Of a DNA stretch of 64,000 nt, positions 22,315-60,940 are shown piece by piece. Positions within the stretch are counted from its first letter, which is position 1. Each line of letters opens with the position of its first letter. The notes beneath the pieces are model-generated. The model ran no database searches, was not told the origin of the DNA, and saw only the letters and a list, made by a program, of their open reading frames with translations. The DNA is from Yuukianura sp. NJ FZ-2021 (taxonomy: Eukaryota): positions 248,001-312,000 of the forward strand of contig JAJCTO010000010.1 in the NCBI GenBank assembly GCA_046563655.1, given 5' to 3'. Made by a program: the position numbers and the translations under genes.

Positions 22315-22353
22315 AGCTATAGTCAAGTAGAAGGGAACTTCCATATTTTCAAA

Positions 22354-23144
22354 ATGGCGTCCCTCCCCCACCCCCCGTGCACATGCCTCGACTTCGACAG
22401 GTTCAACATCCCCGTCACTTCTGGAATGCAGGTAAGAATTTTATTTTGTAAGAAAAAATTCGGCTTACAATTTTAAAAACTAATCTTGGTTTGTAAAATT
22501 TCTTTTTGTTTTTTAGATGTATCAGAAAACAACCAAACTACTGCGAGTTGGTTGAGGAAAAAGTCAGGCAGCAGCGAATGAAAATTTATTCCGAAAAAAA
22601 ACGTGCGGATGATGCCGAGGCAGCTCTGGCAGATGTTTTGAGCCAAATTCCGCAACGACGAACCAACACTGAGGAAGCTGCACCGAATCAACATAAGCGA
22701 CGGAGGACAGATTGCGATTTGAACCGAGCTAATCCTATACCGTCACGAAATTTGACCCCAGCAACTGCAGGACCTTCAAATTATTCGCAGCCGATTGCAG
22801 GACCATCACGGAATTCGCTTCCGCCAAGCTCAGGACCGTCACGGAATTTGCCAACTGCAGGACCGTCACGGAACTCGGTCCAGGCAACTGCAGGGCCGTC
22901 GTACAATCCACCAGAGCCGACTGCAGGGCCGTCACGATATGTAGTGCAGCCGTATGCAGGGCCGTCACACAATCCAACACAAGCAACTGCAGGGCCGTCG
23001 CGCAATACAGCACAACCGGCGGTAAGAAATCCAGAATGTGACAACTCTGCTCGACAACTTCAGGTCAGATTGCGACGTCTGACACAAGAAGAAGTTGACT
23101 CGGTCTACATTGATTCCGGGGAGGAGGAGGAGGCGGACAATTAG
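22354..23144 (+). CDS. Disordered protein with about 9 tandem (T/A)AGPS(R/H/Y)N repeats; probably two exons (intron 22432-22516) with a 1-nt frameshift in the C-run of exon 1
   Basis: ORF 22506-23144. ATG at 22354, CAG|GTAAGA donor, TTTTTTAG acceptor, AT-rich 3' region. Exon 1 joins the long ORF in frame only if one C is removed from 22361-22376. Confidence 0.6.
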
Positions 23145-23450
23145 TTTATGCTTTATTAAATTTTGAGTAAAATATTTTAAAACAAATTTCAATTAAAAAA
23201 AATCTGAAACTGTTAATATGTTACGACAATAAGCTGTGTATTACTTGGGATGTTGAGTTTTAAAAAAGTTTCAATGAAAAAGTTAATTACTTGTTTAAAA
23301 TATACATATGAGGTTACGAAATTTTTTGGAAAAATTAGGACTATTAAAATGTTTGACAATAAGCTCTTTTCTGATGTTTTTCGAATTTTGAATTCAAATT
23401 TTTTTTAAATATGTACATATGAGGTTAGGAAATTTTGGGAAGAAACTCTG

Positions 23451-23822
23451 TTAAAATGTTCGCATAATAAAAAAATAGATTGCATATTCTCCACACACTT
23501 GGGAGTTTGGGCTTTGAAGAGTCCGAATGTTTTCCACAATTGAAGTCTGGAGCCGAGATGCAAAGTTTGAAAAGGCCTTGTCGTAAAACTCCACACCCAT
23601 CCCGTACGAGTCGATGAATTTGAGGGAAGTCTTGGAATTTTCTCGAAACATGGCCACCCAATGACTTCCGGGAGATGTGGACGGATCCGAGTTGACAACC
23701 AGCAGCAGAGGATAACGCTGAACCTCAAGGTGATCCAAATAGTCACACGGAATGACTTGAAAGGTGGCCTGCGTCGGCTTCAAAAATGATGACAGGTAGG
23801 TGAAAATTTGTCGTGTCTCCAT
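23451..23822 (-). pseudogene. Adenain-like (adenovirus-type) cysteine protease 1; C-terminal frameshift in an A-run near 23470
   Basis: VVNSDPSTSPGSHWVA (His), FIDSYG (Asp), LQSPNSQVCGEY (Gln/Cys). It lies directly downstream of the capsid gene, as in Polintons. Confidence 0.92.
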
Positions 23823-23831
23823 CGTCTCTCT

Positions 23832-25147
23832 CTATCCGGTGGTGCTGGTTGCGCTGTAGTCTTTCCAAAAGACGTTCTTGCTCTTGTTCAATGTAGAGAA
23901 CTGCCTGGTATTCGGCGTAGACCATCACAGTAATAGCCTTGGCAACAGCCTTTTTGAATTTCAATTCAATTTTTACATTTCCATGTTTTGGAGGTGCAAA
24001 GCCTTCTCGAGTATGTCGCAAGTTGTAAATCATCAAAGGTTGTTTCTTATACTCGGCTCAGGTCATGTCAATTCCGACATCTTCGTTGGACATTCCCAGA
24101 CCGTAAAAGAGATTGTTGTAGAGCTGAATGTACTGATCTCCTTCCCAATCCAAATGCATTGCCAGAGATGAACTTTGATCTCCGTTGACAGTAACGTTGA
24201 GATGGTTAAAGTCAAAGTGAGAAAAATTGAAGGGATTCGTTGTGATTGTACCCATGTAGTCTTCCGATTCCAAAAGTCCAATTATAATTCTGTCCGGAAG
24301 GAGCCCACTCAGCAAATTTTCATTTATACTTTGCAAACTCCCAGGTCCAATCGTGTAAGTTTTGAGTTCCACCCGACGAAGAGGATATGTAATTGATCGT
24401 CCCAGTTCCCACTCTTTGAGGATTGACGTAACGAGTGAGGGAAGAAGAGTACATTAAACGCGTACATTAAAAGTACAAGCGATTAAACAAAATGCAGGTG
24501 AGGATCGTAGGAAGCTGATGATAATCAATTCCAGGAATCAGGAATTTGTTTTGGGCGAAAATGTCTCCAAATGGACGTCCGATCAACTCAACACTCTTGC
24601 TTCCCTTTGTCAAATCGAACCGAGTTTTATAACCATCCTCCACTGTTGTGCTCTTGCTGCTAGGATCCTTGTCTTTGTAGTATAGAGAACCCTGAGCTTG
24701 TGACTTTTTGAATTCCTTGTTGTAACCGAGTAGAGTTTCAAGGTAGCTTCGGTAGGCGTATTGATTTGAGGATGGTGTGATGAGAGTCTCATTGAAATAA
24801 ACGCTGAGTTGTTGAAACAGGGTATGGAGAAAATTGTTTGCAGGTGCGACAAGTTCCTCTGCCGTCAGAGCAGTTCCATTTTCAGCAACAATTCTTGCCT
24901 TGACGTACAATTTTGTTTCGGACAAGTCCAAAAAATGTGTATCATTTCCTTGAATGTAAAATTCGACGGGTGCCAAATGGTCCGCCAGCGATGTAATTGG
25001 ATGATACTCGGTTTGAATTGTAGACAAAAGGCTGACATCAAAAGCAGGTTCTTCAAACAAATTTGTCTCTGAACGGATAAAAGTGTTAGGAGCAGCCGGC
25101 ACTGAGGTTGTCCCTCCGTACCCTTTTGTTGTTGTTACGCGTGGCAT
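23832..25147 (-). pseudogene. Polinton/adintovirus major capsid protein 1 (double jelly-roll 'hexon'), frameshifted into 3-4 pieces
   Basis: ORFs 24467-25171 (EYHPITSL...VEFYI...LDLSETKLYVK...APANNFLHTLFQQ...YAYRSYLETLLGY), 24058-24372 (LPDRIIIGL...NPFNFSHFD) and 23743-24036 (GNVKIELKF...ITVMVYAEY). Last frame ends ...KNVFWKDY...TAG at 23832. Confidence 0.9.
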
Positions 25148-25148
25148 T

Positions 25149-25590
25149 TTAGAAAACGTACCTTGTTCCACCGACTCTCTTACGACTCTTTGTTCGGCGT
25201 CTCTTATTTCTTTTGCTTTTAGCCTTCTTTGACTTTTTTCGCGTTGGGCCGTATGCTGGTTTTCGTCGTAGTCGTTTGATGCCTCGTTTCCTTGACCTCA
25301 CACCTCGAATGCCCGAACCCGTCTGATTCATAACATCCCTACCCATACTCTTAAGTGCTTCCCAGCCGTGCGATTTCAGAGATTCCTTGATGGGTCTTTT
25401 GTTCAAAATAAAGTCAGAGGCGACACCTCCTACGGCATCTGCCGCATGTGGCAGTACGTACTGCTTAAGAAACGGAAAAAGCCGACGTGCAATTGCACCA
25501 AAAACTCCTCCAAGACCAGCCCCTGACGGGTCACGTAAATTAGAATAATTGATTCGACCAAAACCAACATTATAAACATAATTTTGACAT
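25149..25590 (-). CDS. Basic core (pVII-like) protein with adenain-type Gly-rich cleavage sites; likely 1-nt frameshift just after the ATG
   Basis: The frame upstream of ORF 25149-25406 reads ...PSGAGLGGVFGAIARRLFPFLK...NQTGSG, followed by an Arg/Lys-rich tail. It sits between penton and major capsid. Confidence 0.7.
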
Positions 25591-26636
25591 TTTATAAATT
25601 TTTATTTTGCTTTTTTTTTAACCTTTTTGACGACGAACCCCACTAAAGTAGATTGTGGTGGGGGAAAATCCACTACCAAATTGATTTTGTGAAAAAAATG
25701 AATCGACAGGAAAGTCTCTAGCACAATTGTAGGGGAGGGAGGCAGAGTGGTGTCCAGACGTTGACCTCATGTCTTCCGTTCGCGAAAGCGAAGTGTAGCC
25801 GTGAGGTTACCAAACTCAAATGGCATCCTCTCTCCCACCTCGTTCATTATATACAAATGAATAGTATAAAATTGAGATACGGCCAGCTGCATGTAGTGGG
25901 CATGAGTGAATTCATGAGAGTGTTGTTTTCGAAATTTTCCCTCATAGTTGACCACTCGAAGAATTGTTGCAAGAGCATCTCCAATGAATTGAGGCCGGAT
26001 TAGGTTGCAGTAGACGAAAAGTTTTGTTTGTCCAGCATTCAAAAAGACTGGATACGAGCTAATCTGAAAAAAACGCAAGGAGAAGCAGTGGGCCCGAGAG
26101 CTCCCGATAAACTCATTTTTTCAGCAGTGAAATAATCGACCTACCTGCCAGTGTCATACATCAAAACACTCAAAATTCACTACTGCATCGACTGAAGTCA
26201 ACCACTCACCGTTTGGAAACGATTAACAGCACTTAATGGTAAAAAACAATTTTCACTATTCTTAATCAGCTGAGCTGACGTGATTATACGAAATCCTCAT
26301 CCTTTCGGCATAAACGCCTGACGAATTCAACTTTGGAGCAGATTACACGAGAAACGTCTACTACTTTCTGTGATACCTCTTTCACCCGTTAATTTCATCC
26401 TGTGAACAGCAAATTAATCGGTTAACACGCCGAATCTGAAATTTCCGTCGTTTCCGAGGTTTGGCCACTCTCCACCTTTTTCCGAAAATTCCCGATTCAG
26501 GGATCCCTGTCTAATCCTCGGATAACCTAAAATCCCAATCTTAGGAACTCTATCTAATCCTTTGACAAGCAGATATCTCATCTTCTCCATCCTCGCGTCC
26601 TGCGTTGGAACCTCCGATTCAGGAGTTATTTGAAAA

Positions 26637-26909
26637 TTTCCAATTAAGGAATTCTCACTTCAGAGATTTGACAAAACAATTTCCAATTAAGGAATTCTCA
26701 CTTCAGAGATTTGACAAAACAATTTCCAATTAAGGAATTCTCACTTCAGAGATTTGACAAAACAATTTCCAATTAAGGAATTCTCACTTCAGAGATTTGT
26801 CAAAAACATTTTCCAATTAAGGAATTCTCGATTCAGAGATTAGTGAAAAACTATTTCCAATTAAGGAATTCTCACCTTAGAGATTTGTCAAAACAATTTC
26901 CAATTAAGA
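26637..26909 (+). repeat. About 6 copies of a 43-44 bp tandem repeat in the 5' region of the LINE
   Basis: CAATTAAGGAATTCTCACTTCAGAGATTTGACAAAACAATTTC at 26641, 26684, 26727, 26770 and onward; a partial dispersed copy at ~27481. Confidence 0.95.
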
Positions 26910-27632
26910 AGGAATCACACATGGCAACGGTGGGTCTCGTTTCGGCTCAAATTAATTAACTTTAGGGCCCTATAAGTATTCACAGGAATAACGCAGAAAT
27001 GTGTACGAGGACTCTAAAAATTCGTTATTATCAGTAGAATAAGTTATATTTCTCAGAATTTGCCTTTTTGTTCTGGAATGAGGTTAAAAATTGCATACAA
27101 CGTTCATTTTTTTCTACGCCTGTTATGATACAAAACTTCGGGAATTTGGTAAATATAACTTATGTACCATGGTCTTTCGGATTTTTAGACACATTAAACG
27201 CATTTTTAGGTCTTATAATAAAAAAGTTATAAGACAAAACAGATGTAATTCTGACATAATTCAACAATTTGCAAATATCGGCACTGAATTCAACCGTCTC
27301 CATGGGCACAAAGTTGTTGTTGAACCCATGGTTGTTTGAATTACTATCCTACGAAAAACTTTGGTTTGTCAACCATTGGAAACAGTGCCGACTTTTGCAA
27401 GTTTGAGCAGTGATTTTGCTTTGTTACTAACGGCAATAGCTGACACCAAATCGTAAACAAACGCTGCCTCTTACCCGTCCTTAAGGAATTCTCACTTCAG
27501 AGATCATATTTCCACTTCAGGAACTCCCAATCAAAGAACATTTTCGATCCAGGAATTTCTGCTTAAGGAACTGTTCTGTTCAAAGAATATTCCCGATCTT
27601 GGAATCCTGATTCTGGCTGGTAAATCAAGCTA

Positions 27633-28418
27633 ATGCCAATCTCACGCTCCCCAGTGTCGCAGAAAATGTCTCAAACTACTCTTTCGTTTCTTCCACAAAG
27701 CAAAGGAAGCAAACGAGCTGCAGAATCGGAGCCTAACGATGGAAGCGAGCCATGTTCAAAACGATCAAATTTCTCGAATGACGATCTAATGGCGGCAATG
27801 ACAAAACTAATTGGCAATGTTGAATCCAAAATTGACACAAGATGCGACTCCATCGAACTCAAACTGGGAAAATACCAAGAACAAATCGAAGAACTGCAAA
27901 CGAAAACTGAGAATCAACAAAAAGAAATTGATCAACTGAAGAAAATGAACTCCCGCCTCACAGATGAACTAAGACGTAACAACGTTCTGATCCACGGAGT
28001 TCCAGAAGTTACAAATGAAAACACAACGAACGTTACCAACGGCTTCTTCAACCATTACCAAGTCCGAGTTAATGTAGAAGATGCATTTAGGATTGGAAAG
28101 TTTAACCCGACCTCTGATAAACCACGCCCGATTAAGGTTCGCCTGTCTTCCTTTGCGCAACGCGGACAAGCTCTCCAGCTGCGGAAGAAACTCCTTCAAG
28201 ACAAAGATGTGTGCTCCATTACCGAAGACCTGACCATTGAAACCAGAACGGAAAGACGAAAGATATGGGAATCACGACAAAACGGTCAAAGAAATCGTCC
28301 CCGCGCACCCTCACCAAAAGACAAACGTAACGCAAAACAAACTGAACCTATGACACATCAACGCGAATCCAGTACATCAAACTACGTATCCTGGAGGAAC
28401 AGGGCATCGATAACTTAA
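27633..28418 (+). CDS. LINE ORF1 protein (coiled coil plus L1/CR1-type RRM)
   Basis: Heptad-rich region followed by RRNNVLIHGVPE...AFRIGK...KPRPIKVRL...ITEDLT, the typical non-LTR ORF1 pattern. The ORF is intact (261 aa). Confidence 0.88.
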   Translation: MPISRSPVSQKMSQTTLSFLPQSKGSKRAAESEPNDGSEPCSKRSNFSNDDLMAAMTKLIGNVESKIDTRCDSIELKLGKYQEQIEELQTKTENQQKEIDQLKKMNSRLTDELRRNNVLIHGVPEVTNENTTNVTNGFFNHYQVRVNVEDAFRIGKFNPTSDKPRPIKVRLSSFAQRGQALQLRKKLLQDKDVCSITEDLTIETRTERRKIWESRQNGQRNRPRAPSPKDKRNAKQTEPMTHQRESSTSNYVSWRNRASIT

Positions 28419-29516
28419 CATCACCCCTCTTCTCGCTCTACAGAAATCATACAGTTCACAACTCCACGCAAAATTTTTGGAATACAGGGGACCCTCCAAA
28501 ATATCAATCTCTTCTTAACCCTAGATCCTCCCATACAACCGCAAACCCTTGTCTCACTTGCTAAATTTAAACGCAATAACCAACCCTAAACTCTAACTCG
28601 TATTTTACCATTTCAAGTCTCAATTCACACTAAATCTAAACTTTAAGGTAACTTGATTTTACTGTAACCCGCAAACCCCTGTCTCAGTTAACTTAAGTTA
28701 ATAACTCAAACTTTAACTCCACTTTAACCGTGTTTTACCGTATTTTACCTTACTTTTAAATTACTAAATTCGAAATCTCAATTCATACTAAACTGTATCT
28801 TGATAGGGCAATTGCCAATGTCAAATAAACTAATTGAATTGAAAAAGACTGGATACGCTCCTTCTCCTTCTTAAAGATAGAATCCATCTGCAGGTAGGGC
28901 TCCTCTGACGACTTGGTTCGCTGTCTGCAATTCTCCTCCACCCATCCCCAGAATGTCGGCTACTTGTGGAGAAAACTTGATTGTAGTTCCTTCCTTCAAG
29001 GGTATGCGATACTTGAAGATGCTGGATTCGATTCGAAACTGAGAGTTGGGTAGCATATCGTGCAGAAAACTCAATAGTTGAGTGTCAGTCATCAAACGTC
29101 GGTGTGTTTTGATTGGAATTTCCAAAACTTTTGGAGGTGAAAATGCACGCTGATTAGCAGAGCGGCGCTGTCTTTCTCGAAACGAAATGCTCTTGTCATT
29201 CATATCCAGTTCATGTACAGCAGCAGCGACTGTCTCTGCACCTGTTGGCGCGGCGACAAAAGATGGTGGTGGCAACTGGACCCGTTTTGTAAAAATTGTT
29301 CTTCCTGCTCCGACAAACGCATTTCCATAAGTATAACTCAAGTCGGTCAAGGCCACCTCCCATTGATATCCAGGCAGACTGATGGAACTTGCCAACTTAT
29401 TCTTGAAATCGCAAATTAAATTGCCTGGAAAATAGTCCATCGAAGCATTCGATTGAAGCGTTACGTAGAAAGAGTTGGATGTACTCGAACCAGTTGCAGT
29501 CATCATTGTTGTCAAA

Positions 29517-29878: not shown

Positions 29879-30867
29879 TCAAAACTTTTCCCAACGACAG
29901 ACGTTTCCTCCTCCTCCTCCTCTTTGACTCTTGGTCCCTCCTTTTCGGAACACATCCTTTCCAGTTGGATTAGCAGCCCTCCTTACAAGCCTCTTTGCAA
30001 TAGGTGTAGCTTTAGCTCTAGTAGGTGAGGGACGATGAATTTGAAATGGTGGTGGTGGTGGTGGTTGGGGGTTTTCTTCAAAACCGTCTTCTCCCTCTTC
30101 CTCCTCTTCCTCGTCGGTTCCCCTTTCATTCTGGCTGGCACTTGGTGTGTTGTAATTTGATCCCGCCAGGTTCTGTTGTTGTCTTTGCTCAAAAAATATT
30201 GCTGGGGAAGTGATTAGGCGCGAAATTCCAGAGTTTGGAGCAGATCCATCCACAATTTTTGGAGAAATGTACCGCTGCAATTGGTCTCGAACTTGTATGA
30301 ATCCTTCGGGAGCTCTAATATTCTTTCGATCCTTGAGGTTTATGAAATATTGTAGTATGTTTACAATGTCAGAGCCTGGTAGACGTTGCTTTTGAATCAA
30401 AACTTCAAACTTTTCATTCCAAACAATGTCATTGTAGCGCATCAAATGCAAAAATTTTCTTGCATTTTTACTTCCTTTTAGCTGCTCCAAAATGTATGGT
30501 TCAGTAACATCTGAAGATTTTCCACTCTGATGCTGGGATTGGAAATTATACTATCTCCAAGTTGAGTTCCGTAAAAAAGATTTGATTGATTGTCGTCGTC
30601 TTCTTGAAATCCCTCATGTTGACGGTCACGGTCACCCGCAACATTTTTCACCAAAATTGGTTTGGATTCTAAAATATGACGTTTTTGATGGAGACGACGA
30701 GCTAGGTCTTGATACAAAATTGCTTTTATGTCATCTGGTATGTTTGAATTTGACAACACGCTCAGTTTCGGGTCTACAGAATCGACGGCAGGGATAGAAA
30801 CGTCATTTCCAACTAATCTGATTTGATGCTGAATTTTTTGAAAATCTGCTTCGTTCACCAACCTCAT
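29879..30867 (-). pseudogene. Conserved Polinton hypothetical protein, split by a frameshift near 30485
   Basis: Overlapping ORFs 30478-30867 and 29879-30490. The IVWNEKFEV...LPGSDIVNILQYF...APEGF motif resembles the conserved gene next to the pX-like gene in animal Polintons. Confidence 0.6.
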
Positions 30868-31241
30868 TCGCTTCTTTCCGGTTGAGTTTTCTTTTTGAAA
30901 AATCCTACGGCAGTACTAATTAAAGAGGGTAGTACAGCTCGAAGCAAAAGAGATAGTATCGCACCTCCTTTTTGAGACAAGAGTCGTTTTTTCTTAAACT
31001 TGAGACTTGACCTCCGCCGACCCTTGAGTATTGCGAGAATGGTTTTTTTGTATGGTTTCAGGCGTTTGACAGTGTTGGCGGTGATGCCCACGTTCCCTTT
31101 GTATACGTTAAGTATACACTCACAAATGCCTTGAATTTCCTCTTTGCTTGCGTTTTTAATCAATTCTCGCCGCTGTTTAGGTGACGTTGCTTTGGACAAG
31201 TAGCTCAAAAACTCTCTGTTTTGCGCTACACACTTGGACAT
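30864..31241 (-). CDS. Small basic virion protein with a QKGG cleavage site and amphipathic C-terminal helix (pX / membrane-active type)
   Basis: ICECILNVYKGNV...LKPYKKTI...LLSQKGG then AILSLLLRAVLPSLISTAVGFF. The ORF is intact. Confidence 0.75.
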   Translation of the reverse strand: MSKCVAQNREFLSYLSKATSPKQRRELIKNASKEEIQGICECILNVYKGNVGITANTVKRLKPYKKTILAILKGRRRSSLKFKKKRLLSQKGGAILSLLLRAVLPSLISTAVGFFKKKTQPERSE

Positions 31242-31342
31242 GTTGACCAGTCAAGGAGTTGGGCGTCAATGAAGCTTTTCACTCAAGAAGCTGTTAACAA
31301 TAAAGACCATGACACTTGTCGCATTTTAATTTAGTCGTCAAA

Positions 31343-32275
31343 ATGTCAGAGCTTTAAAAACAAACCAAAGAGGATTACGTAAATCCAAATGTCCAGCATA
31401 GCTTTTCGGGTGCATATCAAGTTAAAAAAAGTTTGAAAAATCATTCAAAAGATGTCGAACGGTCACTCTCTTCCATACAAGCATATACTCTGCACAAACG
31501 AGCTCGGAAAAGATATCCTAGGCGAAGAGTATTCATTCCTGGACTTAAGCAACAAATGGTAGCAGATCTGATTGACGTAAGCAAGTATAGCGACTCAAAC
31601 AACGGATACAAGTTCTTGTTGACTTGCATCAATGGGTTTAGTAAAGTTGCAGATGCAATTCCACTCAAGAATAAAAATGCACCTACTGTGCGAAATGCTC
31701 TGGCGAAGATTATAGAGAAGCGAGGACCTTGCAAGTACTTGCAGGTTGACCGAGGCAAAGAATTCATCAATAAAACTGTGGAAAAGTTACTCAAACAGCA
31801 TGGAATCCATTTGTTCAGTACAGGATCCGAGTTGAAGGCGGTAATTGTGGAGAGATTCAACCAGACTCTTATGAATAGAATTGCTCGCTACATGACATAC
31901 AAAGAAACGGAGAAATTTTACGACGTTCTGCCTGCGATCGTGGAGAATTACAACAATTCATACCACTCTTCCATCAAATGTGCACCGAATCAAGTCAATG
32001 AAGAAACGAAAACTGACGTTTTTCTAAATCTCTACAAAGACAGAGTCGTAAAGCGTCGTAAAAAAACGAAATTCTCCGTTGGGGACACTGTTCTGATTAG
32101 TAAAATCAAAAAAATCTTTGAAAAGGGCTACTCGAGGTTTTGGAATCGAGAGCAGTTCAAGGTTTCCAAAGTTTTTTATACTAATCCAACCAGCTATCAG
32201 CTTCAGGATTTAAAAGGAGAGTTCATCTTTGGAGTATTTTATGATCCGGAACTCCAGAAAATTCTTCATTCCTAA
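31343..32275 (+). CDS. Polinton retroviral-like (rve) integrase; 5' end degraded, open from 31433; no C-terminal chromodomain
   Basis: AYTLHKRARKRYPRR, ADLIDV (D), LQVDRGKEF (D), VERFNQTL (E), YNNSYHSSIKCAP, FEKGY, FYDPELQK. Confidence 0.93.
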
Positions 32276-32840: not shown

Positions 32841-33503
32841 CTATTTTTTCAAATAGACGATGCATGATGGGTCGGGAAAAAGATTTGAACGGAAACGGTG
32901 TTCATCATCCTGCTGTTGACTCAAGTCCATAAACAAGTAACTGTTTGGCTTGTTTTTTGTTGCGTCATCGTATGCAGCTTCAAGGACGGGATGACTTTTT
33001 CCATTGTTCATTTGTCTTCCCAGAAACTGAATGATTGTAGAGTCACGTGGATTTCGAAATAACGCCAAATATTTGTTGTTTAACGTCAAGTTTCTACAGT
33101 TTTTGTAGAAAAAGTTTTGCATTGTAATGATTAGAGACATTGATCTATGATGACTCCCTCGAGTCACCACAGTGCAAACGTCCTTGGACATTGCAATCTC
33201 TTCCATAAAGTCGTCGAGAATTACGAGAGTGGGAACTCGGTTTCCCTCGGCCACGTCCACCTCCATACCCTTTTGAAATTCAACACAAGCGTCCTCCTTG
33301 TCCTTGAAAGCTTCATGCACAGAACTTGCAAACGAAGGCAAATCTTCACCGTAGCAATAGATTACTCGCTCAATTTTAGGCTCAATCACTTCATCTTTTC
33401 TCAAAATTAATTGATGAATTAATGTACTCTTTCCAGATTGCGTGGCTCCTGCACAAACCATCACAAACGGATGACTCAAACCAAAATGAAAACTCATCTC
33501 CAC
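32841..33503 (-). CDS. Genome-packaging ATPase (A32/FtsK-HerA family)
   Basis: Walker A GATQSGKS, Walker B VILDD, RGSHHRSMSLIITMQN, YLFMDL. The ORF is intact. Confidence 0.94.
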   Translation of the reverse strand: MEMSFHFGLSHPFVMVCAGATQSGKSTLIHQLILRKDEVIEPKIERVIYCYGEDLPSFASSVHEAFKDKEDACVEFQKGMEVDVAEGNRVPTLVILDDFMEEIAMSKDVCTVVTRGSHHRSMSLIITMQNFFYKNCRNLTLNNKYLALFRNPRDSTIIQFLGRQMNNGKSHPVLEAAYDDATKNKPNSYLFMDLSQQQDDEHRFRSNLFPDPSCIVYLKK

Positions 33504-33588
33504 ACCTTTTTAAACACTTGCTATTGGTCAAACGTTCAAATTCAAACTAAAATTTAAATCTTTATTAAATTGGCTTATATTAGGACTC

Positions 33589-37350: not shown

Positions 37351-37491
37351 GATTATTTTTACAAAAAAATTTCATCATCATCATGACATCCGAACATTCC
37401 GTCGGCTGATACTGAAGGGGTACAGATGCCGACCGTGAACTACTTGTACCAGCAATGAGACCTAAAAAACCAACAACAACAACAACAACAA

Positions 37492-37863: not shown

Positions 37864-37988
37864 ATTTCTCCTCCCTACAATTGTACTGGTTCAAGGTTAA
37901 TGCACAACTGAACTCAGTTTCGTTTTTTGTTGCCCTTATGTGTTAAGAAATGACACCCTAACCTCCCCTCAAAAGTTTCCTCTCAAGT

Positions 37989-38105: not shown

Positions 38106-38135
38106 GAGATCATCATTTTCTCATGCACTCTGAAA

Positions 38136-50200: not shown

Positions 50201-51183
50201 GGTAGGGCAATGCTCAAGGGTTGAGCATAGGTCTTCTGGAGGTGGTTGATAATTGATGCGACTTTAAACCGGTTTGCCTTAAAACTGTAGAATAAATGAG
50301 AGAGCGTTTTCATGGAATTGATGCACCAAAACGTCGCTCAATATTTTCAGTGTGCATGTGAAGTGCTACTTTGTGCATGAGCTGCGCCAAATTTGGGTTG
50401 GCAATTCTACCATTAAATTGCACCAAAATCATGTTCCAGTTTTGAGCCCCAAAATAGTGCACTGAATTGATGTTCTTAATTTGTTGAGCAAGATGCACAT
50501 AATGTATGGTCGGTGTTGCCATGGCAATGTACTATTAGCGAAACGAGCGTAAACCAAACGGCATCAAAATAGTGATATCGAAATTGAGATTTGTGCATGA
50601 TGAACAAATTTGAACGCTGAGCAGGATGGGTTGAATATGCCTTCTTTTAAATCGAAATCGGTTCATAAAGATGCACAGTGTGTTAAATTAAGTGCATAAG
50701 TTATTCAGCCGAAAATCGCTTGTTTATAATCAGAATTAAAATACTTTCTTGTGAATGCAAACTTGAATCCTCCCATTCGCTGCTTAATTGTTACGAATTT
50801 AAGCCGGAATTTCTACCCTCTAACTAGGCTTAATTTAACAACGTAATTAAACTAACTGTCAGAAAATGACCAGATCAAAACTTCGTTGTTAAAAAATATT
50901 TTCAGTGCAATGCAAAGGTATCAAAAAATTTAAGTCAGAAGAGTCGGCAATGGGAAGTAGCCGCTAATTTTCATGTTGTTAATATAACACTTTTAGTGGA
51001 ATGTAGACCTATTAAAAATACTTTAGCCATACATAACCCCCCGAACGGGATAGGCCTTATGTTTCAGTGGAAAGATTCCTAAAAAATGTGACACACAGAC
51101 AAAGTCGTATCAATAGTCTTCTTCAGCATGTCGTAGACATGCGTCTCCAGAAGACTAAAAACAAAATGCCACCTCCACTCACC
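50201..51183. mobile_element. About 980-bp non-coding DNA-transposon-like insertion in Bel/Pao gag
   Basis: Removing 50201-51185 restores the frame FEQKQ-SSSEPTSG. Termini GGT...ACC with a subterminal inverted GTCTTCTGGAG; 2-3 bp duplication (AA or CAA). Confidence 0.65.
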
Positions 51184-54100
51184 AATCATCAAGTGAACCC
51201 ACCAGTGGATCTCAAGTGGACTCAAACTTGCAGTCTCCAAGTGTAATCCAGACCAGTTCTGGACATTGTTCTCCAGAGAACAATTCAGCACATGTGGTGC
51301 TAATGGAGACTGTGTTAGTGGATGTCCTGGATTCGCATGGTGACAAGCAACAATGTCGTGTCTTTTTGGACAGTGGATCCGAATCTCACTTCGTTTCAGA
51401 GCAGTGCGTAGATCGTCTTGGATTGCCCCGTGAGAAAACGTGCGTCAACATTTGCGGAATCGGTGGTGCGACTGCGGAAACTTCCAGAGGATTAGTCACC
51501 CTCAAAATTTTTTCACACCTCAACAATTACTCTGTGGAGTTCAAGGCTCTTGTATTGAAGAAAGTTACAGGATCCAAGTTGCCCCGTTCAACCATCACAT
51601 CATCACTTAACTACTTGGGTGAAATCGAATTGGCCGATTCTACATTTGCATCTCCAGGACCAGTGGACATCCTAATCGGTGCTCCATTAATTGTTGAGTT
51701 CAGCCGCCCTGGACTTATTCGTGGCCCCAAAGGTTTCCCATCTGCTCGAAATACAGTTTTCGGGTGGGTACTTTCTGGAGTTGCCCCATGTGAGTCAAGT
51801 GCCTCCAATTGTGTTCAAGTGCTCTATTCCCGTTGCTCTAAGGATGAACCTTGTGTTGATTCAACGCTGAAAAAGTTTTGGGAACTTGAGGAGCCTTGTT
51901 CCGTACCTCAACCCACTACTAAAGAGGATGAACAGTGTGAAAAGTGGTTTCAATCATCTGTTAAAAAGTTGGATTCTGGTGAATACTCTGTAGGACTTCC
52001 GTTCGTTTCTGACTTTTCTGGACTTGGCTCATCCCCTACTGCTGCATTACGTCGTTTGACTAGTGTGGAAAAATCACTGGCGAAAAATCCAGAAATGAAA
52101 AGAAGTTATCATCAGCAGTTCAGTGAGTACATTACAAAAGGTTGGTTAGTGACAGTCTCTCCTTCTAATTTACAGAACCCGTGTTCGTACTACATGCCTC
52201 ATCATGTCGTAACCAAGGAAGACAGCACGACTACAAAGTACAGAATCGTTTTTGATGCCAGTGCCAAGTCTTCGAACTTTCCCTGAACAATGTTCTGAAA
52301 ACTGGCCCAAAACTCCAAGTTGATCTGGTTCCACTTTTACTCCATTTTCGTACACACATTGTTGCCATGTCAGCTGATATTACCAAATTTTATAACTGTT
52401 TCTCTGTTCACAGTGAATTCAGTGATTATCAGCGACTACTCTACCGTCCTACTCCAAATGACCCAGTGATGGACATGAAAATGACAAGAGTGACGTTCGG
52501 TGTAGCCCCCGCTCCCTTTTTGGCCATTCGTTGTCTCCACCAGTTGGCAGATGACAACTTTGAAAAATATCCGGCCGCATGTCAAGTCATCAAAAAAGAA
52601 TTTCTTGTGGACAATTTATTGTCAGGAGCCCCGTCAGTGGACGAAGCCATCCAACTACAACAAGAACTGCTCAGTGTCATGCAAATTGGGAAGCTCGAAC
52701 TGCGAAAATGGACTTCGAACAGTCCAATCGTCGTTTCATCTGTCACTTCCGAAAATCAGGCGAAAAGTCACACCCTCGAAATTACAGAAGACGGAACCGT
52801 GAAAACAATCGGATTACTGTGGAATCCGTCTCTTGACACTTTCAGTGTAAAATTGAGTCCTAGTCTCCTATACAGTTCATCATCGAAGTTTCCAGGGCTA
52901 ATTCCTGTCACTACCACAAAGAGAAAAGTTCACTCCAGCATCGCCAGGATTTTTGATCCATTGGGCTGGCTGTCACCACTCATCATTCGCCCCAAAATTC
53001 TAATGCAGAAATTGTGGAAACCGAACTTGGACTGGGACTCTCCTCTTCCCGACTATCTTTTGGACGAATGGTATAACTATACGATAGACGTCATTCGCCT
53101 AAAATCATTTTGCGTACCCCGTTGTGTCATCCATTCCGACCTTACTTCAACCCAATTTGAACTCCACGGTTTTTGTGATGCCAGTGTCTCGGCATATTCT
53201 GCCTGTTTACTTGAAAGCGTTTTCAAGTGCCAACACCCCGATTGTCAATTTGCTATGTGCAAAAACTAGTGTTGCTCCAGTAAAAGGCGAAACAATTCCC
53301 CGACTTGAACTGTGTGGAGCAGTACTTTTGTCAAAATTAATGACTACAGTCATTTCGTCATTGCCACTCCACATTTCGTCTATCAACTGTTGGTGTGATT
53401 CCACATGTGTACTAAATTGGATCAATTCAGACAAGAAGTTGGAAGTTTTTGTGCATAACCGTGTGCGTAAAATTTCATCGCTCCTTCCTTCTGCCAATTG
53501 GAATCACGTTGATGGTGACGACAATCCAGCGGATTGTGCATCACGTGGTATTTCTGTGTTTCAGTTTTTGCAGCATAAGCTTTGGCTACATGGTCCAAAT
53601 TGGCTACAAGAGTCTCCACAAATGCCGACCAGTGCTACAACCACACAAATAGTTACTCCCTCCAACTGGTTTTTCGAAACGGTGGGAGTATTCATCCAAA
53701 AATGTGATTCGTTTCATAAGATGAAACGATATTTAGCAGTATGGATCCGCTATGTTGCCAATTTATATCCAAAAAGTGAAAGTGTGATTGGACCATTGAC
53801 TGTGAAAGAATTGGATCAAGCCCTCATCGTTCTTGTCCGTTATGTCCAATTGGAAACGTTCTCAAGTGAATTGGATTGGTGTAAAAGGAAAAATACGTCT
53901 CCAAGTACTGTAAAATCCCTCACGCCGTTTATCGACGCAAACGGTATTTTACGGGTGGGAGGGAGACTGCGTCATAGTTTCTGGTCCTATGACCAAAAAC
54001 ATCCAATCTTACTTCCTCGTCACCACCATTTCACAAATTGTGTCGTTGGACATGTGCACCATGCCAACAATCATCCAGGACCACAACTGCTGCTCTCACT

Positions 54101-55069
54101 CGTCCGTGACCAATTTTGGATTTCAAATGGACCGAAACTCTGTTCATCCATTGTACGAAAGTGCATTCAGTGCCACAAAGCAAATCCAAAAGTGTTAGGA
54201 CAGAAAATGGGCCAATTACCAACTACTCGTGTGAACCCCACTCTTCCATTTGCTTACGTCGGAGTTGACTATGCTGGTGCGTTCCATGTCAACGCAACTC
54301 CTGGACGTAACCCGAAACTTCTAAAAGCAGATGTGGCAGTGTTCGTCTGTTTAGCAGTGAAAGCGATTCACTTAGAGTTTGTTAGTGACCTCTCCACTCC
54401 AGCATTCTTAAGTGCCTTTGATCGTTTCGTGTCCACCCGAGGCTGCCCCTCAAAAATTTTGTGTGATGGTGGGAGAAACTTTCTTGGCGCCAAAAATGAA
54501 GTGGAAGCATTTCAACATTTTGTTCAGTCCACCCCCCATGTCAACCAAGTGTCTAAGTTTTTCGAGGATCAAAATGTTGAATTCGTCATAAACCCACCCT
54601 ACGCTCCACATTTTGGCGGGATTTTCGAAGCTGGAGTGAAATCCATGAAAACACATCTTCATCGTGTTGCTGGTGACAGGCGACTTTCAATTGAAGAGTT
54701 CTGGACCCTCCTCAAAAGAATCGAGGCAACCCTCAACTCTCGACCTTTGACCCCAATGTCATCCGACGCAAACGACTTCTCTGTTCTGACTCCCGGGCAC
54801 TTCCTCATTGGACGATCCTTGAAGGCTGCACCACAGGAGAACCTGGATGGATTCAAAGTTCATCAACTGACACGCTGGCAGTATGTGCAGCAGATGGCAC
54901 AGCACTTTTCTCGTCGTTGGAGTTCCCAGTACCTCCAGTCCCTCCAGAAAACACCGAAGTGGTTTGCAGAGCAGGAGAACCTTGGAGTCGGAACCCTCGT
55001 TCTGCTCAACGACAGTGACTCGGACCTTGGACCACAAAAATGGACGCTGGGACGGATCACTGCGGTGTA

Positions 55070-55637
55070 GGGGCGAGTTGGCTCAGTGGTTAAGCCTTCA
55101 ATGCTTTTCCACTGGCCGGCCTGAGTTCGCACCCAGTCAGCGGGAGAGAAAAAAAGAAGTCGAGGCCGTGGGTCCTCCCTGTCCCGAAGCAGGGAGGCAA
55201 GTGCTGGACTTCTGTCTTTCCAGCGGCTGTTGTGTGGACACCCCTATATAAAGGAGTATATTGGGGGGTGCCGCATCTGCAAGCACTGCCTGCTGAGACC
55301 ACAGAAGGAGCTGACCTTGAGTCAGAGGTGTCTGTGGTCTGCTGTGACAGCGGGTAAGAGCTTCGCGGATTTGTGGTGGTTGCCGATCACTATTCCTTGA
55401 AGCAGTCCATTAAGCTAAAAAATAACCATTCAATCTGATTTGCTTATCGGGATACGGACGACCTCCGTAGGATGATAGCATTCAGATTACCATAATGTGT
55501 ATTTGCTCATAAAGGACAAAAAATAACGCTGTTTCTAAAGGGGTAGGTCTGAAATATACCATAAGCGTATGCTCAGCGTGAGTCAGTCACCTAATTATAG
55601 GTGACTGCTCCCCCCAATAAACATATATATAACATAT
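55070..55637 (+). mobile_element. tRNA-derived SINE inserted in the Bel/Pao integrase
   Basis: Head GGGCGAGTTGGCTCAGTGGTTAAG, B-box-like GAGTTCGCACC, AATAAA plus CATATAT tail, 14-bp TSD ATCACTGCGGTGTA at 55056-55069 and 55638-55651. Confidence 0.88.
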
Positions 55638-55892
55638 ATCACTGCGGTGTACCCTGGAAAGGACAACCTCGTCAGAGTCTGCGACGTTCATGTTCCAGTA
55701 ACGGATGCCAAGGGAAACGTCACAGTCAAGACGTACAACCGTCCCATTGCCAAGGTTTCCCCTCTCCCCATCGACGATGGAACATATACGTATGCGTATA
55801 AATCTTAAAAATAAGATTTAATATCAAATACTAATTATTTGATTGTGTGAGTGTTTGAGTTCCCTTTTGTTCTTAGGTTTAGTTATAAATAT

Positions 55893-57246: not shown

Positions 57247-57708
57247 CTAGGACTTAACAAACTGTTCAACAATTGCATCATTTTTCTTAAGATCGAAACG
57301 ATAGAATTCTTTCAAAATCTCCGGAACGGGTCTTCCTCGCAGCATGTTTGAGATTACATACAAACAAAATTGGCCACAGTTACTGCTATTGTCCGACTGA
57401 ACTTTTGTGCAATTGTACTTGTATCTTCCAAACCGACGTAGAATAGAAATTCCGTATGCACTAGGCTGTTGACCAAGAGGGTCAAAGAAAATTAGCCCCC
57501 CCCTTTTGCGCATGACAAGACATGTCCAGTGAAGCCCTCCCGACCCTTCAAGGTCATCCGTGTTAACAATAACTACAAACGGAATCGATAAATGTAGAGT
57601 TGCAAGTTGATTCCTGGCGACGACGGCCGTCATTGCCTTTCGGTTTGTACAATTCAAAATTCCTTCCAAGTGGGATTCCAGTTCTTCGGTACTCATTCCC
57701 CATGCCAT
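57247..57708 (-). CDS. Adenain-like cysteine protease 2 (ORF intact)
   Basis: IVNTDD...GLHWTC, FFDPLG, VQSDNSSNCGQFCLY, NDAIV. Confidence 0.92.
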   Translation of the reverse strand: MAWGMSTEELESHLEGILNCTNRKAMTAVVARNQLATLHLSIPFVVIVNTDDLEGSGGLHWTCLVMRKRGGLIFFDPLGQQPSAYGISILRRFGRYKYNCTKVQSDNSSNCGQFCLYVISNMLRGRPVPEILKEFYRFDLKKNDAIVEQFVKS

Positions 57709-57710
57709 GT

Positions 57711-59094
57711 CTACTCGAATCGTACCCCTCCACGACCGTCCAGAGAAAGCAAGTTTGTCACTGTCCCAAGTATTAGCAGCTGAATCGTTTTTGTCGTTGT
57801 TGCCGAAAATTGCAATGTCACCTGGAATTACAAAACGGAAAATGAAACATGGAGATTTAGGGTGTATGGGAATTTGGGCGAACTATTTTTGAGGCTTACG
57901 TATAACTCTCCGGTCCTTTGAGGAACAAATGTAGACGAAGGCACAGATTCGGAAAGTTGAAACAAAAATAACGAGTTTCCTTTGGCAAACGTCTCTCGGC
58001 CGATTGCGTTTCCTCCGGTACTATTGACTGGGAGTGCGCCAAAAATCGACTCAAACGCTCTCATGTACTCCTTTAGGTTAAAGTTGAATTCGAGCGAGTC
58101 GTATCGAAACGTGGTTTCATCAAATGTAACCACAATCGACGTTACACCGCAATCGTTAAAATTGAGTGCAGACTTGTTTAGCGCTCCAACGTAATTTGCA
58201 TTGTCCATTAGAGCGACAACGACCGTGTTGGGGACTCGGTTGGTAAAACCGACGAGAGTCGAGAGGGTGCTGACTCCAGAAGGAATTACATACGGCCGAA
58301 TCTCCAGATCTTTGAGAGGATAAACTGCCTTGAGTCCCTTTTGAAATGCCTGCTGATGACGCCGCTCAATCTCCTCGTTTATTCGGTAAATCTTTACGTA
58401 CAACGAGACTTCCACCAACTGAGCCTTAAATGGGATCCCGACTTGCCCAGTCTCTGTCGTCACACTCGAGTCCAGATAAATTGCTGGAGAATTTTTGGTC
58501 AAAATGACATCAAAATTCATAGCCAGGGGGGATGAAGCGATCGACTTCAAATATTCCGCTCGCGAGTCTTCCAGGGCAATCAAATGTTTTTGATTCCTAT
58601 GCCAAATCTTTCCGAGTTTTAAAGCTAGAATTGTTGGCGTCCGTAAAATCATCTGGTGCGTTATCCGGGTAAAACAGTTGCGCGGTCATTCGCGAATTTT
58701 TGTCCCCCTCCGATCTGCCGAGAATTTCGGGGATCGTGCTGCGGTAAACATACTTGCCGCAGCTATCCGAAATTGTTGTAGAATGCAAATTAACCTTGAC
58801 ATTGTTCCAGAGGAGGTGGAAAAACAAATTCGCAGGAGCGACATTGTCGTCTGTCGCAATCTTTGTGCCATCAGCATTAACAATCCGCGCACGAACATAC
58901 AAGTAGCTGTGACCCAGATGGTAGTACAGCTTTGATTTCGGGATTGTAAAGGTGATTTGCGCGTCATCGCTCAGAGGAGTGGTAGGTTTGAAGTGAAGAA
59001 ACTGTGACTCTAAAATTCACACGTCAGTAGGTGGGACTTCAAAAATGTTCAGCGAATTTTGATAACTTTTTCGGCTTTTGCTTAGAAATTCCAT
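57711..59094 (-). pseudogene. Major capsid protein 2 with a 78-nt intron (57822-57899); stops and frameshift
   Basis: LNIFEVPPTD...FKPTTPL...LYVRARI...VAPANLFFHLLWNNV; YPLKDLEIRPY; VPNTVVVALM; FAKGNSLFLFQL. Spliced end TGELY|VTLQFS...LLSLDGRGGVRFE*. Confidence 0.88.
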
Positions 59095-59096
59095 GC

Positions 59097-59390
59097 TCAA
59101 GCGTTTTTCTGGAACCCACAAGGAGCGTCACCCTTCCTCTTTGACCGCTTCTTTGATACTGACTTGCGTCTGCCTTCACCCGTCTGGGACTTATCCCTTT
59201 TGGCTGGTCGTTTCTTGCCCGGTCCCTTCCTTTTTTCGCCCTTAGTAACCTTGACCTTTTTGCCTTGACTTTTGACTTTTTTGCTTTTCTTGCGAATTGG
59301 GGGGCCCTGGAATTTTTGGAGTGGCACGTACGTGGTGTCGGGGGTTGCGACTAATCCTCCAGATTGCGGAAAGGGATCTACTGCTGCCAT
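59097..59390 (-). CDS. Small Lys/Arg-rich core-like protein
   Basis: QSGG site followed by a highly basic tail. It lies immediately upstream of capsid 2, mirroring module 1. Confidence 0.6.
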   Translation of the reverse strand: MAAVDPFPQSGGLVATPDTTYVPLQKFQGPPIRKKSKKVKSQGKKVKVTKGEKRKGPGKKRPAKRDKSQTGEGRRKSVSKKRSKRKGDAPCGFQKNA

Positions 59391-59606
59391 CACTTTTTGT
59401 AGCTTACAAACTCTATTTTTGCACACGACCTCTCGCATTCACCATGCAGTGCAAACTACTCGAGTGTCTTTTGACGACTGACGAGCGTAAAGATATGGTA
59501 CGCCTTTATGACCCACCTCCAGGGGCGTCCGTACAGTGCGACAGACAAACGAAGACTGAGGTCGGGAGGTGCACATGTGTTCTCAGCTCAGTGTCCAGCA
59601 AACTAC

Positions 59607-59750
59607 TGGCGACCGTTTTGAAATTTGAGGAAATTTGGAAGCCTTGGCGACCGTTTTGGGGACGACAACTTTACGACATTCGCTTGGCGACATTGAACTT
59701 TTTGGAGCAACATTGAGCGTGTGGCGACATTCAATCTGTAGCGACACTCG
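59607..59750. promoter_or_regulatory. Cluster of about 8 (G/A)CGAC(A/C)-core motifs upstream of core/capsid 2
   Basis: TGGCGACCGTTTTG twice, then ACGACAAC, ACGACATT, GCGACATT, GCAACATT, GCGACATT and GCGACACT. The function is inferred. Confidence 0.4.
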
Positions 59751-59800
59751 AATAGACTGAATATTTTTTAAAAATACACGAAAATTTCGGAAAGACAGCG

Positions 59801-60413
59801 TTAGCTTTCAAAGGGCGTTATTCTTCCGACAATAGCACGTCTACAAATTGGGCATGACATTACTGCCGCTGCACAAGAGGAACAGCATGCCATGTGACAA
59901 CAGGGAAGCAAAAGCGTATCCAATTCTCGTTCCATGCACACCTTGCACATCTTTTCTGCTTTTAAGCATTGTGGAATCGTATTTAGCTTTTCGATGCACT
60001 CGCTCTGCATTTCCTTTGCTGCAATATTCTTGAGAACTTGTTCAATCTTTCCACACACGTCTTCCACACTCGCGAAGTTGGTTCAATGGGAATATTTATA
60101 TCTTTAACGCCACGAATCAGAGGGCAGGACCCGTTGAATCGTCTTTGCTCAGTGTTAATGTCGTCTCCAATTATAAAGTCACCGAGAATAATGGAGCAAA
60201 AGAAGCAACGAACCATATCAGCACGGCCGAAGTAGTAAAAGCCTTCTCGTGAGGAGTAATAAATGAATGTGTCCAGACATGCGGAGGCGCAAAAAATGTT
60301 TCCAAGCGCTTTTTTTCAGATACATATAGAGATGGTGCACGGCTTATTGTAAACGAATAGAGTGGTCGATTTGGCGGTACGTTGCTGACGAGGTTGTGGT
60401 CATGTTGTGACAT
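59801..60413 (-). pseudogene. Inhibitor of apoptosis (single BIR plus C-terminal RING), two frameshifts
   Basis: BIR: EKKRLETF...W...FYYFGRADMVRCFFC...EQRRFNGSCPLI. RING: CKVCMERELDTLLLPCCHMACCSSCA...CPICR. Confidence 0.9.
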
Positions 60414-60940
60414 GATTTTATTCGCGGGAGCGTATATGTAGCGTAATAATTGTGTTGCTTCCTTTGACTTCGGTGATTGGGTTGAGAAACTCGTCGGCCA
60501 ACTGAATGTGCGCAGACTCGATGCGGCTCCGTTTAAGCGGAAAGTAGACTCGCTTGGGGATTTTTTTTTCGCGACAAATCCAGTAGTGCCCTTATCTTGC
60601 AGAATCTGTGCCGGATGGACTGGCTGACCTGTGACCTCTACTGTGGATGCTGGATGAGATGGAAGGAGAGAGAAGACCGACAAGACAAGTGAAGCCAATG
60701 AGAGCTTTATTCAGACTGAGTGAATGAATGGAATGAATGTATGTGCAGTAGCCTATGCTTAGCCTATGAGGGGTGAGATGGGTGCTGTGTATGGGGTGTG
60801 GTACACATTGGGGGGCTGAAAAAGGGGGTCCTCCGGGGGGTGGGGTATGTGCAAAAATCCGGGGGGACGGTCCAACGAAAATCCAGGAAAATCCAATGTA
60901 CAGGGCCGGTCGTCATCATCTAATCAGGAACATGAGCACC

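Follow-up and report, generated by a model that had tools for sequence, protein, structure and literature searches.

A block with two Polinton gene sets beside a satellite array in Yuukianura sp.: probably two stacked, decayed elements of different lineages

Two sets of capsid, protease and polymerase genes in one gene-dense block may belong to one enlarged virus genome or to two elements that lie next to each other, and this question is raised by a 64,000-nucleotide stretch of contig JAJCTO010000010.1 from Yuukianura sp. NJ FZ-2021 (assembly GCA_046563655.1, positions 248,001 to 312,000 of the forward strand), here called the window. From 22315 to 60.9 kb of the window, between a 184-bp satellite and a Ty3/Gypsy element, nearly all sizeable reading frames lie on the minus strand. 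Polintons are typically 15-20 kb long and have the ends 5'-AG...CT-3' with a 6-bp duplication. An earlier note on this DNA had presented the block as a 'double' Polinton-like virus, leaving two explanations side by side, one enlarged virus or two divergent elements. Our analysis favours the second: the block probably consists of two Polintons, decayed and independent of each other, that differ in lineage and architecture and lie stacked next to the satellite, cut by later insertions, while the 'double' virus of the headline is unsupported in view of the different capsid lineages and the stand-alone gene orders described below.

Two gene sets of different lineage

Pfam scans were run on 53 open reading frames (ORFs) of at least 100 aa and on a further 127 ORFs of 50-99 aa. 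The inventory supported by homology comprises two major capsid proteins (MCP1 and MCP2), two adenain-like proteases, two protein-primed B-family DNA polymerases (PolB1 and PolB2), one integrase, one packaging ATPase, a PIF1-type helicase fragment and an inhibitor of apoptosis protein (IAP) with one BIR and a RING. Pfam and homology thus bear out the two capsid/protease modules, two PolBs, PIF1 helicase and IAP listed in the earlier note. Neither capsid gene is recognised by Pfam, and full-length capsid homologues match the window at 23.7-25.1 kb and 57.6-59.1 kb and nowhere else. When the insertions at 26121-28873, 38770-39466, ~43886-45385 and 49487 to ~56000 (a BEL/Pao element) are removed, 26.5-27 kb remain, close to the earlier estimate of about 26 kb. 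Module 1 (element A, 22.3-38.0 kb) is ~12.9 kb long without its nested insertion and module 2 (38.1-60.9 kb) ~14 kb without insertions, and each module alone is within the normal size range of Polintons.

The paired genes of the two modules are divergent. MCP1 and MCP2 share 35% identity in the N-terminal part and 18% in the C-terminal part, PolB1 and PolB2 share 29-30%, and the two proteases share 26% (E 6e-8; the HW and CG motifs align); no similarity between the modules was found at the DNA level. PolB1 shares 53-58% identity with the polymerase P0151. A capsid tree of 85 rows was built from 81 of the 150 listed relatives (length 400-470 aa) and four single-frame pieces from the window. In this tree, both MCP1 pieces grouped with P0079 (SH-aLRT 96), and both MCP2 pieces fell into a separate set of 38 rows (support 97). 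The tree for which the earlier note had asked therefore places MCP1 and MCP2 in different supported groups, that is, in divergent lineages. When all four window pieces are forced into one clade, the log-likelihood falls by 66.4, and the approximately unbiased (AU) test rejects a clade of MCP1 and MCP2 (p 0.0175). Because of this split, and because PolB1 is nearer to polymerases of other organisms than to PolB2, a duplication within one genome does not account for the two modules, which would be at most a fusion of two lineages.

Gene orders were compared with those of 99 loci (19 viral and 80 metagenomic), each retrieved by a single PolB match. Along the minus strand, element A carries a zinc-finger/PolB1 gene, the ATPase, the integrase (reversed), small ORFs, a penton-like gene, a pX-like basic protein gene, MCP1 and protease 1. 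The order of module 1 recurs in L029, an intact metagenomic contig of 8.3 kb (PolB, ATPase, small ORF, integrase, penton, capsid and protease), from which module 1 differs in its inverted integrase and in several extra small ORFs. Module 1 also shares with the canonical Polintons/Mavericks (proposed Adintoviridae) a PolB that has an N-terminal domain and contains an Endonuclease VII-like insert, an rve integrase, a packaging ATPase, a capsid of the double-jelly-roll type, a penton-like gene and an adenain-like protease; it differs from them in that end repeats and a target duplication were undetected and all large genes are broken. Element A is a complete canonical Polinton with every hallmark gene of its own.

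The minus-strand order of module 2 is IAP, basic ORF, MCP2, protease 2, BEL/Pao element, helicase fragment, 252-aa ORF, PolB2, two ORFs and a putative membrane protein. Two IMG/VR loci and one metagenome contig are its counterparts: L001 shows ATPase ... capsid, protease and PolB, the last three as in module 2, L005 shows integrase (-), PLA2 (-), ATPase ... capsid, PolB and protease, and L077 shows capsid then PolB. The capsids of L005 and L077 match the N-terminal part of MCP2, not that of MCP1. These loci differ from module 2 in that identities are just 21-39%, and that module 2 has no visible integrase, ATPase or penton; moreover, protease and PolB are separated by ~0.4 kb in L001 but by ~11 kb in module 2, where the BEL element, the helicase fragment and the 252-aa ORF intervene. 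Module 2, with a protein-primed PolB, a capsid and a protease, appears to be the visible part of a second Polinton of the other architectural type. Since each module has the gene order of relatives of its own kind that show one polymerase, we read the two as separate elements.

No integrase, packaging ATPase or penton of its own was found for module 2 in 38.1-60.9 kb by Pfam or by module comparison, and the earlier note had considered that module 2 may depend on module 1. This suggestion finds no support, since the ATPase and other virion genes lie upstream of the capsid gene in L001 and L005, and the integrase does too (on the reverse strand) in L005, exactly in the part that is cut here. As the Gypsy element and the end of the window cut off the region where these genes would be expected, the gaps in module 2 are uninformative on dependence.

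Several points weigh against two separate elements. The group submitted to the AU test was chosen with the tree already in view. The comparison loci are only 25-45% identical, and many of them lie on short contigs. Between the modules there is no terminal inverted repeat (TIR), target duplication or satellite remnant, and we infer the boundary. The main genes of both modules lie on one strand, tightly packed as in a single genome. Decay is similar in both modules, so age fails to separate them.

The PIF1-type helicase fragment

Pfam recognises PIF1 at 49144-49488 (-) with an E value of 3e-6, above the cut-off. The N-terminus of the helicase with its Walker A is gone, cut at the BEL junction, and no Walker A was found on either side of the BEL element; the deletion at about 49.5 kb, said earlier to hide the link between the helicase and capsid 2, is confirmed. 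Over one well-kept stretch, the best solved match is bacterial Pif1 5fhd (E 9e-7), against E values of 0.025 for Helraiser and 0.1-0.4 for eukaryotic PIF1. A solved-structure search with a 173-aa helicase piece gave chance matches only, and a word-index protein search gave none among longer proteins.

The fragment may be cargo of module 2 or the remnant of another transposon, and the chances that it belongs to module 2 are roughly even. That it is, with or without the 252-aa ORF, the remnant of a Helitron-like or other PIF1-bearing transposon lying between protease 2 and PolB2 is quite possible, though somewhat short of an even chance. The nearest named Atlas clusters are short PIF1-like fragments of animals (arthropods, rotifers; score 0.95-0.97), and the RepHel protein of Helitrons has a PIF1-family helicase domain, of which fragments are common in animal genomes. 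None of the 99 comparison loci matched any of the four helicase pieces, nor the BIR or the RING (tblastn, E<=1e-3), PIF1 was absent from Pfam scans of ORFs of at least 130 aa in 17 of the 19 viral loci, and when viral contigs were scanned with the helicase piece, the sole result was a match of 31 residues in L020, a contig of 59 kb. Four other nested insertions already lie in the block. On the other hand, the helicase lies on the strand of PolB2 and is packed closely with it, its well-kept stretch is nearer to bacterial Pif1 than to Helraiser, and a polinton-like virus described in PMC12721341, in which a superfamily 1 (SF1) helicase forms the N-terminal part of a fusion with a full protein-primed PolB, sets a precedent for a helicase ahead of PolB. 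No Rep domain, which would mark a RepHel protein, is visible; Helitron_like_N matched none of the scanned window ORFs, and the stretch upstream of helicase motif Ia, where that region would lie, is gone at the BEL junction.

The fusion just mentioned, from a polinton-like virus of Oxyrrhis marina, was likened to module 2 by its description. In both, an SF1 (Pif1/RecD-type) helicase precedes a full protein-primed PolB and shares its strand, but here the genes are separate, with ~1.8 kb and the open 252-aa ORF between helicase motif VI (~48.1 kb) and the start of PolB2 (~46.3 kb). Tlr1-like helicases, likewise compared by description (PMC5499653), have their domains in reverse order and a polymerase that is inactivated. 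It is possible, though less likely than not, that module 2 by itself stands for a Polinton lineage of animals in which a separate Pif1-type helicase gene lies immediately before a full PolB. If this is true, module 2 would be the unfused counterpart of the helicase-PolB fusion of the dinoflagellate polinton-like virus and would bear on the origin of such fusions.

PMC8502044 reports mid-size DNA viruses with adintovirus-like virion genes and a RecD/Pif1-like helicase gene, termed S1H, instead of PolB, and notes degraded endogenous copies in corals and jellyfish. By its likeness to bacterial Pif1, the window helicase would fit such S1H genes as described there. It is nevertheless unlikely that the block holds three or more elements, in which the capsid-2 block (IAP, capsid 2 and protease 2) and the SF1 helicase would form a polymerase-less relative of the S1H-type viruses and the PolB2 block a separate, truncated Polinton. 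The reported S1H viruses and the better match of the helicase to bacterial Pif1 than to Helraiser or eukaryotic PIF1 speak for it, as does L029, where PolB comes first and protease last, so that by this pattern an element could naturally end between protease 2 and PolB2. However, the succession of capsid, protease and PolB on one strand is seen in the single-polymerase loci L001, L005 and L077, and no boundary is needed; there is no TIR between the blocks, and with the helicase N-terminus and the upstream flank deleted, linkage to either side is unreadable. Gene order was also considered as a proof of the protease 2/PolB2 boundary and was dropped, because the same order occurs within single-polymerase relatives.

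Ends, junction and decay of the block

Inverted repeats of at least 40 nt number 0 pairs in 22000-64000, in line with the earlier statement that no TIR is visible. A sensitive blastn comparison of candidate ends gave AT-rich chance matches only. For element A, no TIR beyond such matches was found between 22250-23500 and 37850-40100, nor a 6-bp target duplication, and the window contains no inverted copy of the first 20 nt at 22315, even with up to 3 mismatches allowed. The end repeats of element A were likely lost through age, all of its large genes being decayed. On the left, satellite and unique sequence meet at 22314/22315 with no transition zone, so that, as far as the letters can be read, the first Polinton abuts the array directly. 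The boundary between the modules lies most plausibly in the 0.7-kb gap at 37.9-38.6 kb, for which no inverted partner was found. The gap holds a two-copy 58-bp tandem repeat (37989-38105) and a GC-rich tract (38230-38480) that reads as poly-proline (+) or poly-glycine (-).

The block had been described as tightly packed with mostly co-oriented genes, which stands as far as nearly all lie on the minus strand, but the large ones are pseudogenes: PolB1, PolB2, MCP1, MCP2, the helicase and the IAP are all broken, and the integrase, the ATPase and protease 2 keep open frames. These breaks reflect genuine decay, not sequencing noise, because stop codons are among them and the neighbouring Gypsy pol has an open frame of 1019 aa. 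Disabling changes amount to about one to two per kb in module 1 and module 2 alike; decay density was tried as a clock for separating the modules and was dropped, its level being alike in both. Neither element can now act as a virus.

It is very improbable that the block is a single composite, that is, a cointegrate of two Polinton lineages that formed one mobile or packaged unit of at least 26 kb, with two capsid, protease and polymerase sets, the SF1 helicase and the IAP, and with its outer terminal repeat beyond the window. Co-orientation, tight packing and a junction that shows neither TIR nor target duplication nor host spacer would agree with such a unit, and the left end at 22315, which has no inverted partner in the window, may have one beyond 64000. 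Against it, the 99 loci were each found through one PolB match, a single collinear PolB was seen in each viral locus, and two capsid places were seen in none of the loci listed with capsid matches; the paralogues come from different lineages with no duplication, and both halves match stand-alone architectures. The lacking end repeats are equally explained by age, every large gene being broken, and a non-exhaustive search, in the parts of the literature it reached, found no Polinton with two capsid or polymerase sets. Least probable of all is a misjoin of the modules across repeats in the assembly: the join region contains low-complexity and repeated DNA, and most of 36.5-46.4 kb is found only in runs of one sample (word shares 0.67 and 0.64; 0.28 in a second organism, maybe just nested repeats), but nothing in the sequence indicates a misjoin, and the Gypsy pol, open over 1019 aa, speaks for good base-level quality.

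We therefore return to two separate Polinton/Maverick (adintovirus-like) elements of different lineages, which would follow one another head to tail along the minus strand, next to the edge of the satellite. The two would have arrived separately, as integrating elements may accumulate in satellite-adjacent heterochromatin. Later transposons would then have broken them: the Gypsy element may have cut off the upstream part of module 2, and the BEL/Pao element, with a flanking deletion, may have damaged its middle. Such stacking is plausible because a satellite lies on one side, a Gypsy element on the other, and four nested insertions within.

Individual genes, later insertions and comparison loci

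Table 1. Features of the window, with positions counted from its first letter
Position	Strand	Feature	Basis
24-22314		184-bp satellite array	TRF: period 184, 123.1 copies, 92% matches
22354-23141	+	Proline-rich ORF facing inward, 33-bp coding repeats	ORF 22497-23141 and direct repeats
23408-23831	-	Protease 1 (adenain-like cysteine protease), last gene of module 1	Pfam and homology
23863-25170	-	MCP1, pseudogene: one frameshift, in-frame stop(s)	Capsid homologues
25152-25601	-	Small virion-core-like protein, Gly-rich N-terminus, Lys/Arg-rich tail	Sequence reading
25770-26120	-	Putative penton (minor capsid), C-terminal part	L029 ORF homology
26121-28873		Unclassified 2.75-kb insertion splitting the penton gene; 43-bp tandem repeats	Penton halves contiguous in L029
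28874-29581	-	Putative penton, N-terminal part	L029 ORF homology
29882-31250	-	Three small ORFs of module 1	ORF list
31358-32272	+	Retrovirus-like integrase, open, 305 aa	Pfam rve
32844-33509	-	Genome-packaging ATPase, open, 222 aa, Walker A GATQSGKST	Pfam (weak) and homology
33592-37371	-	PolB1: protein-primed, N-terminal domain, C2H2 fingers, Endonuclease VII-like insert; 3 frameshifts and 1 in-frame stop	Pfam and homology
37495-37890	-	Zinc-finger ORF	Weak C2H2 matches; PolBs of relatives bear C2H2 Pfam domains
37891-38577		Non-coding gap between modules	Two-copy 58-bp tandem repeat, poly-Pro/Gly tract
38578-39801	-	Putative two-exon membrane protein: Cys-rich exon 39493-39801, then transmembrane-plus-tail exon ending at 38578	ORFs
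40030-41158	-	Two ORFs downstream of PolB2, one acidic	ORF list
41172-46275	-	PolB2: second full-length-type protein-primed PolB, several frames, at least two in-frame stops	Pfam and homology
46917-47672	-	Open 252-aa ORF between helicase and PolB2	ORF list
48069-49488	-	PIF1/RecD-type SF1 helicase fragment, four frames; motifs II, III and VI readable	Pfam PIF1
49487-55805	+	BEL/Pao long terminal repeat (LTR) retrotransposon, 5'-truncated, starts in gag	DUF1759, Peptidase_A17, Integrase_H2C2, DUF5641
57250-57882	-	Protease 2, adenain-like, open 211-aa frame	Pfam
57831-59091	-	MCP2, pseudogene in two frames	Capsid relatives
59042-59438	-	Basic Lys-rich ORFs upstream of MCP2	Sequence reading
59804-60420	-	Small IAP: one BIR and C-terminal RING, frameshifted over three frames	Pfam
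60944-64000	-	Ty3/Gypsy pol, open 1019 aa to the window end	RVT_1, RNase H, Integrase_H2C2, rve

Most genes of module 1 could be aligned with L029. PolB1 covers residues 22-1279 of the 1281-aa polymerase P0152 at 40-48% identity in frames -2/-1/-3/-2, and contains DNA_pol_B_2 at 34938-35726 (-) (E 1.8e-9, 37.5 bits, cut-off 25.8) and Endonuclease_7 at 35708-36247 (-) (E 4.9e-6). The adjoining zinc-finger ORF is probably the start of the PolB1 gene, with an ATG near 37862. The ATPase gave weak AAA_14, Adeno_IVa2 and FtsK matches in Pfam; it shares 36% identity with the L029 ATPase (E 2e-35) and 24% with the Pox_A32-type ATPase of L001 (E 2e-5). The integrase (rve, E 1.9e-11, 44.6 bits, cut-off 32.6) is 41% identical to that of L029 (E 8e-62). 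The integrases of L007, L008, L009, L010 and L017 carry a C-terminal chromodomain (Pfam Chromo), which could steer integration to heterochromatin; none was called in the window integrase.

MCP1 matches residues 14-437 of the 438-aa P0079 at 38-40% identity in two frames, and the L029 capsid at 32-39%. For protease 1, Peptidase_C5 at 23454-23831 stayed below the cut-off (E 0.006), and the identity with the L029 protease is 34% (E 1e-13). The two penton pieces match one 293-aa ORF of L029 between its integrase and capsid genes, the C-terminal piece at residues 198-287 (32% identity, E 1e-11) and the N-terminal piece at residues 29-89 (37% identity, E 5e-9). The label is thus putative, given to a homologue of an L029 ORF at the penton position. 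Profile comparison of four candidate pentons of the viral loci with the window pieces showed no similarity, and the AlphaFold2 (AF2) model of the L029 ORF (pLDDT 35.8) is too poor for a fold search. The small virion-core-like protein next to MCP1 is putatively pX/pVI-like, labelled by its position and by the description in PMC8502044.

One ORF of module 1 with a hydrophobic tail (30867-31250, -) lies directly after the ATPase gene and has matches at the same position in five of the 80 metagenome loci (L029, L050, L052, L058 and L063). It matches the 127-aa ORF of L029 (E 1e-8) and is, as judged from these alignments, a lineage-specific conserved small membrane protein. At the satellite side, the proline-rich ORF probably has two exons, with an ATG at 22354 and a GT..AG intron at ~22431-22517.

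In module 2, the PolB2 fragments are collinear with full-length Polinton PolBs over residues ~140-1333 at 21-41% identity, and the usual N-terminal domain is present; DNA_pol_B_2 at 41961-42362 (-) fell just under the cut-off of 25.8 (E 9.1e-6, 25.3 bits). A word-index protein search with the N-terminal piece of PolB2 gave none among longer proteins. In the representative library, 987 relatives of MCP2 were found at E<=1e-3, mostly of ~430-450 aa and at best 36-37% identical, and the N-terminal half of MCP2 is 39% identical to P0012 and P0030. DJR-like_dom (PF21738) was not matched by the window capsids, unlike the capsids of L005, L013 and L017, and the two capsid alignments (A1 and A2) were too variable for a pattern scan. 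Protease 2 contains Peptidase_C5 (E 1.5e-5, 25.2 bits, cut-off 21.3) and matches proteases in seven of the 19 viral and six of the 80 metagenome loci. When viral contigs were scanned with it, one tblastn relative and no distinct locus were obtained; single-protein scans with MCP1, MCP2 and a PolB2 piece gave no relatives.

The IAP shows its BIR at 59986-60315 (-) (E 1e-9), with the BIR start in a third frame, and its RING at 59804-60082 (zf-C3HC4_3, E 1.7e-12). PMC8502044 reports IAP homologues in adintoviruses; given these, it is a known kind of accessory gene. The basic ORFs upstream of MCP2 may be the positional counterpart of the pX-like gene of module 1. No Pfam match was found for the two ORFs downstream of PolB2, which also have none in the 99 comparison loci, or for the 252-aa ORF, which has no usable Atlas match and an AF2 model (pLDDT 34.6) too poor for a fold search. 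The putative membrane protein has plausible splice sites, and the gap between its exons, as read from the letters, holds a 697-bp repeat.

The earlier note called this repeat (38770-39466) a HINE inside an intron; it is flanked on both sides by a 9-bp direct repeat, ATAATAGCT. The element in the penton gene is a later insertion, because the penton halves are contiguous in L029; it contains a coiled-coil ORF (27624-28415, +) with only coiled-coil noise in Pfam. PolB2 holds ~1.2-1.5 kb of foreign DNA near 43886-45385. No convincing target duplications were found at the 26.1/28.9-kb and 43.9/45.4-kb insertions. The BEL/Pao element, whose Pfam domains in the longer ORFs span 49487-55067 (+), is interrupted near 55071-55600, with the end of its pol at 55605-55805, and has no LTR pair and no long direct repeats in the window. 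A 55-bp inverted match (82%) links 44469-44521, in the foreign DNA of PolB2, with 55071-55125, in the interruption of the BEL pol, which suggests that one short repeat family may have inserted in both. The Gypsy pol frame is open up to the window end, in contrast to the decayed BEL and Polinton genes; the Gypsy is probably a young insertion, and the right edge of the block, 60.4-60.9 kb, may in part already be its 3' LTR, to an extent that we infer. Rfam and tRNA scans of 22-64 kb gave nothing save a mir-7918 match whose 28 bits fall short of the threshold of 80, and among the five sequencing runs listed from two studies there was no RNA run containing the stretch.

Some comparison loci showed features of their own. 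A 465-aa ORF at L012:6201-7595 (+) has a parvovirus-type PLA2-like domain (E 1.6e-6) and an ADP-ribosyltransferase exoenzyme-like domain (E 4.2e-6). L018:4439-10000 (+) is a polymerase ORF of 1854 aa with an Endonuclease VII-like insert and a weak C-terminal PriCT_2 match, and L014 and L018 carry Sputnik-type (virophage-like) capsid genes beside a Polinton-type PolB. The 18-kb locus L015 has two similar NUMOD4/HNH/AP2 homing-endonuclease-like genes near both ends (209-730, - and 17182-17700, -) and a GIY-YIG ORF between PolB and integrase.

As read here, the block is an ordinary transposon graveyard; it would be weightier if both modules had truly moved as one unit. On the reading of two stacked elements, two Polinton lineages with different gene orders would have colonised the same genome, both ending beside the satellite. 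This may help in annotating repeats, and it cautions against mistaking stacked fossils for one giant element.

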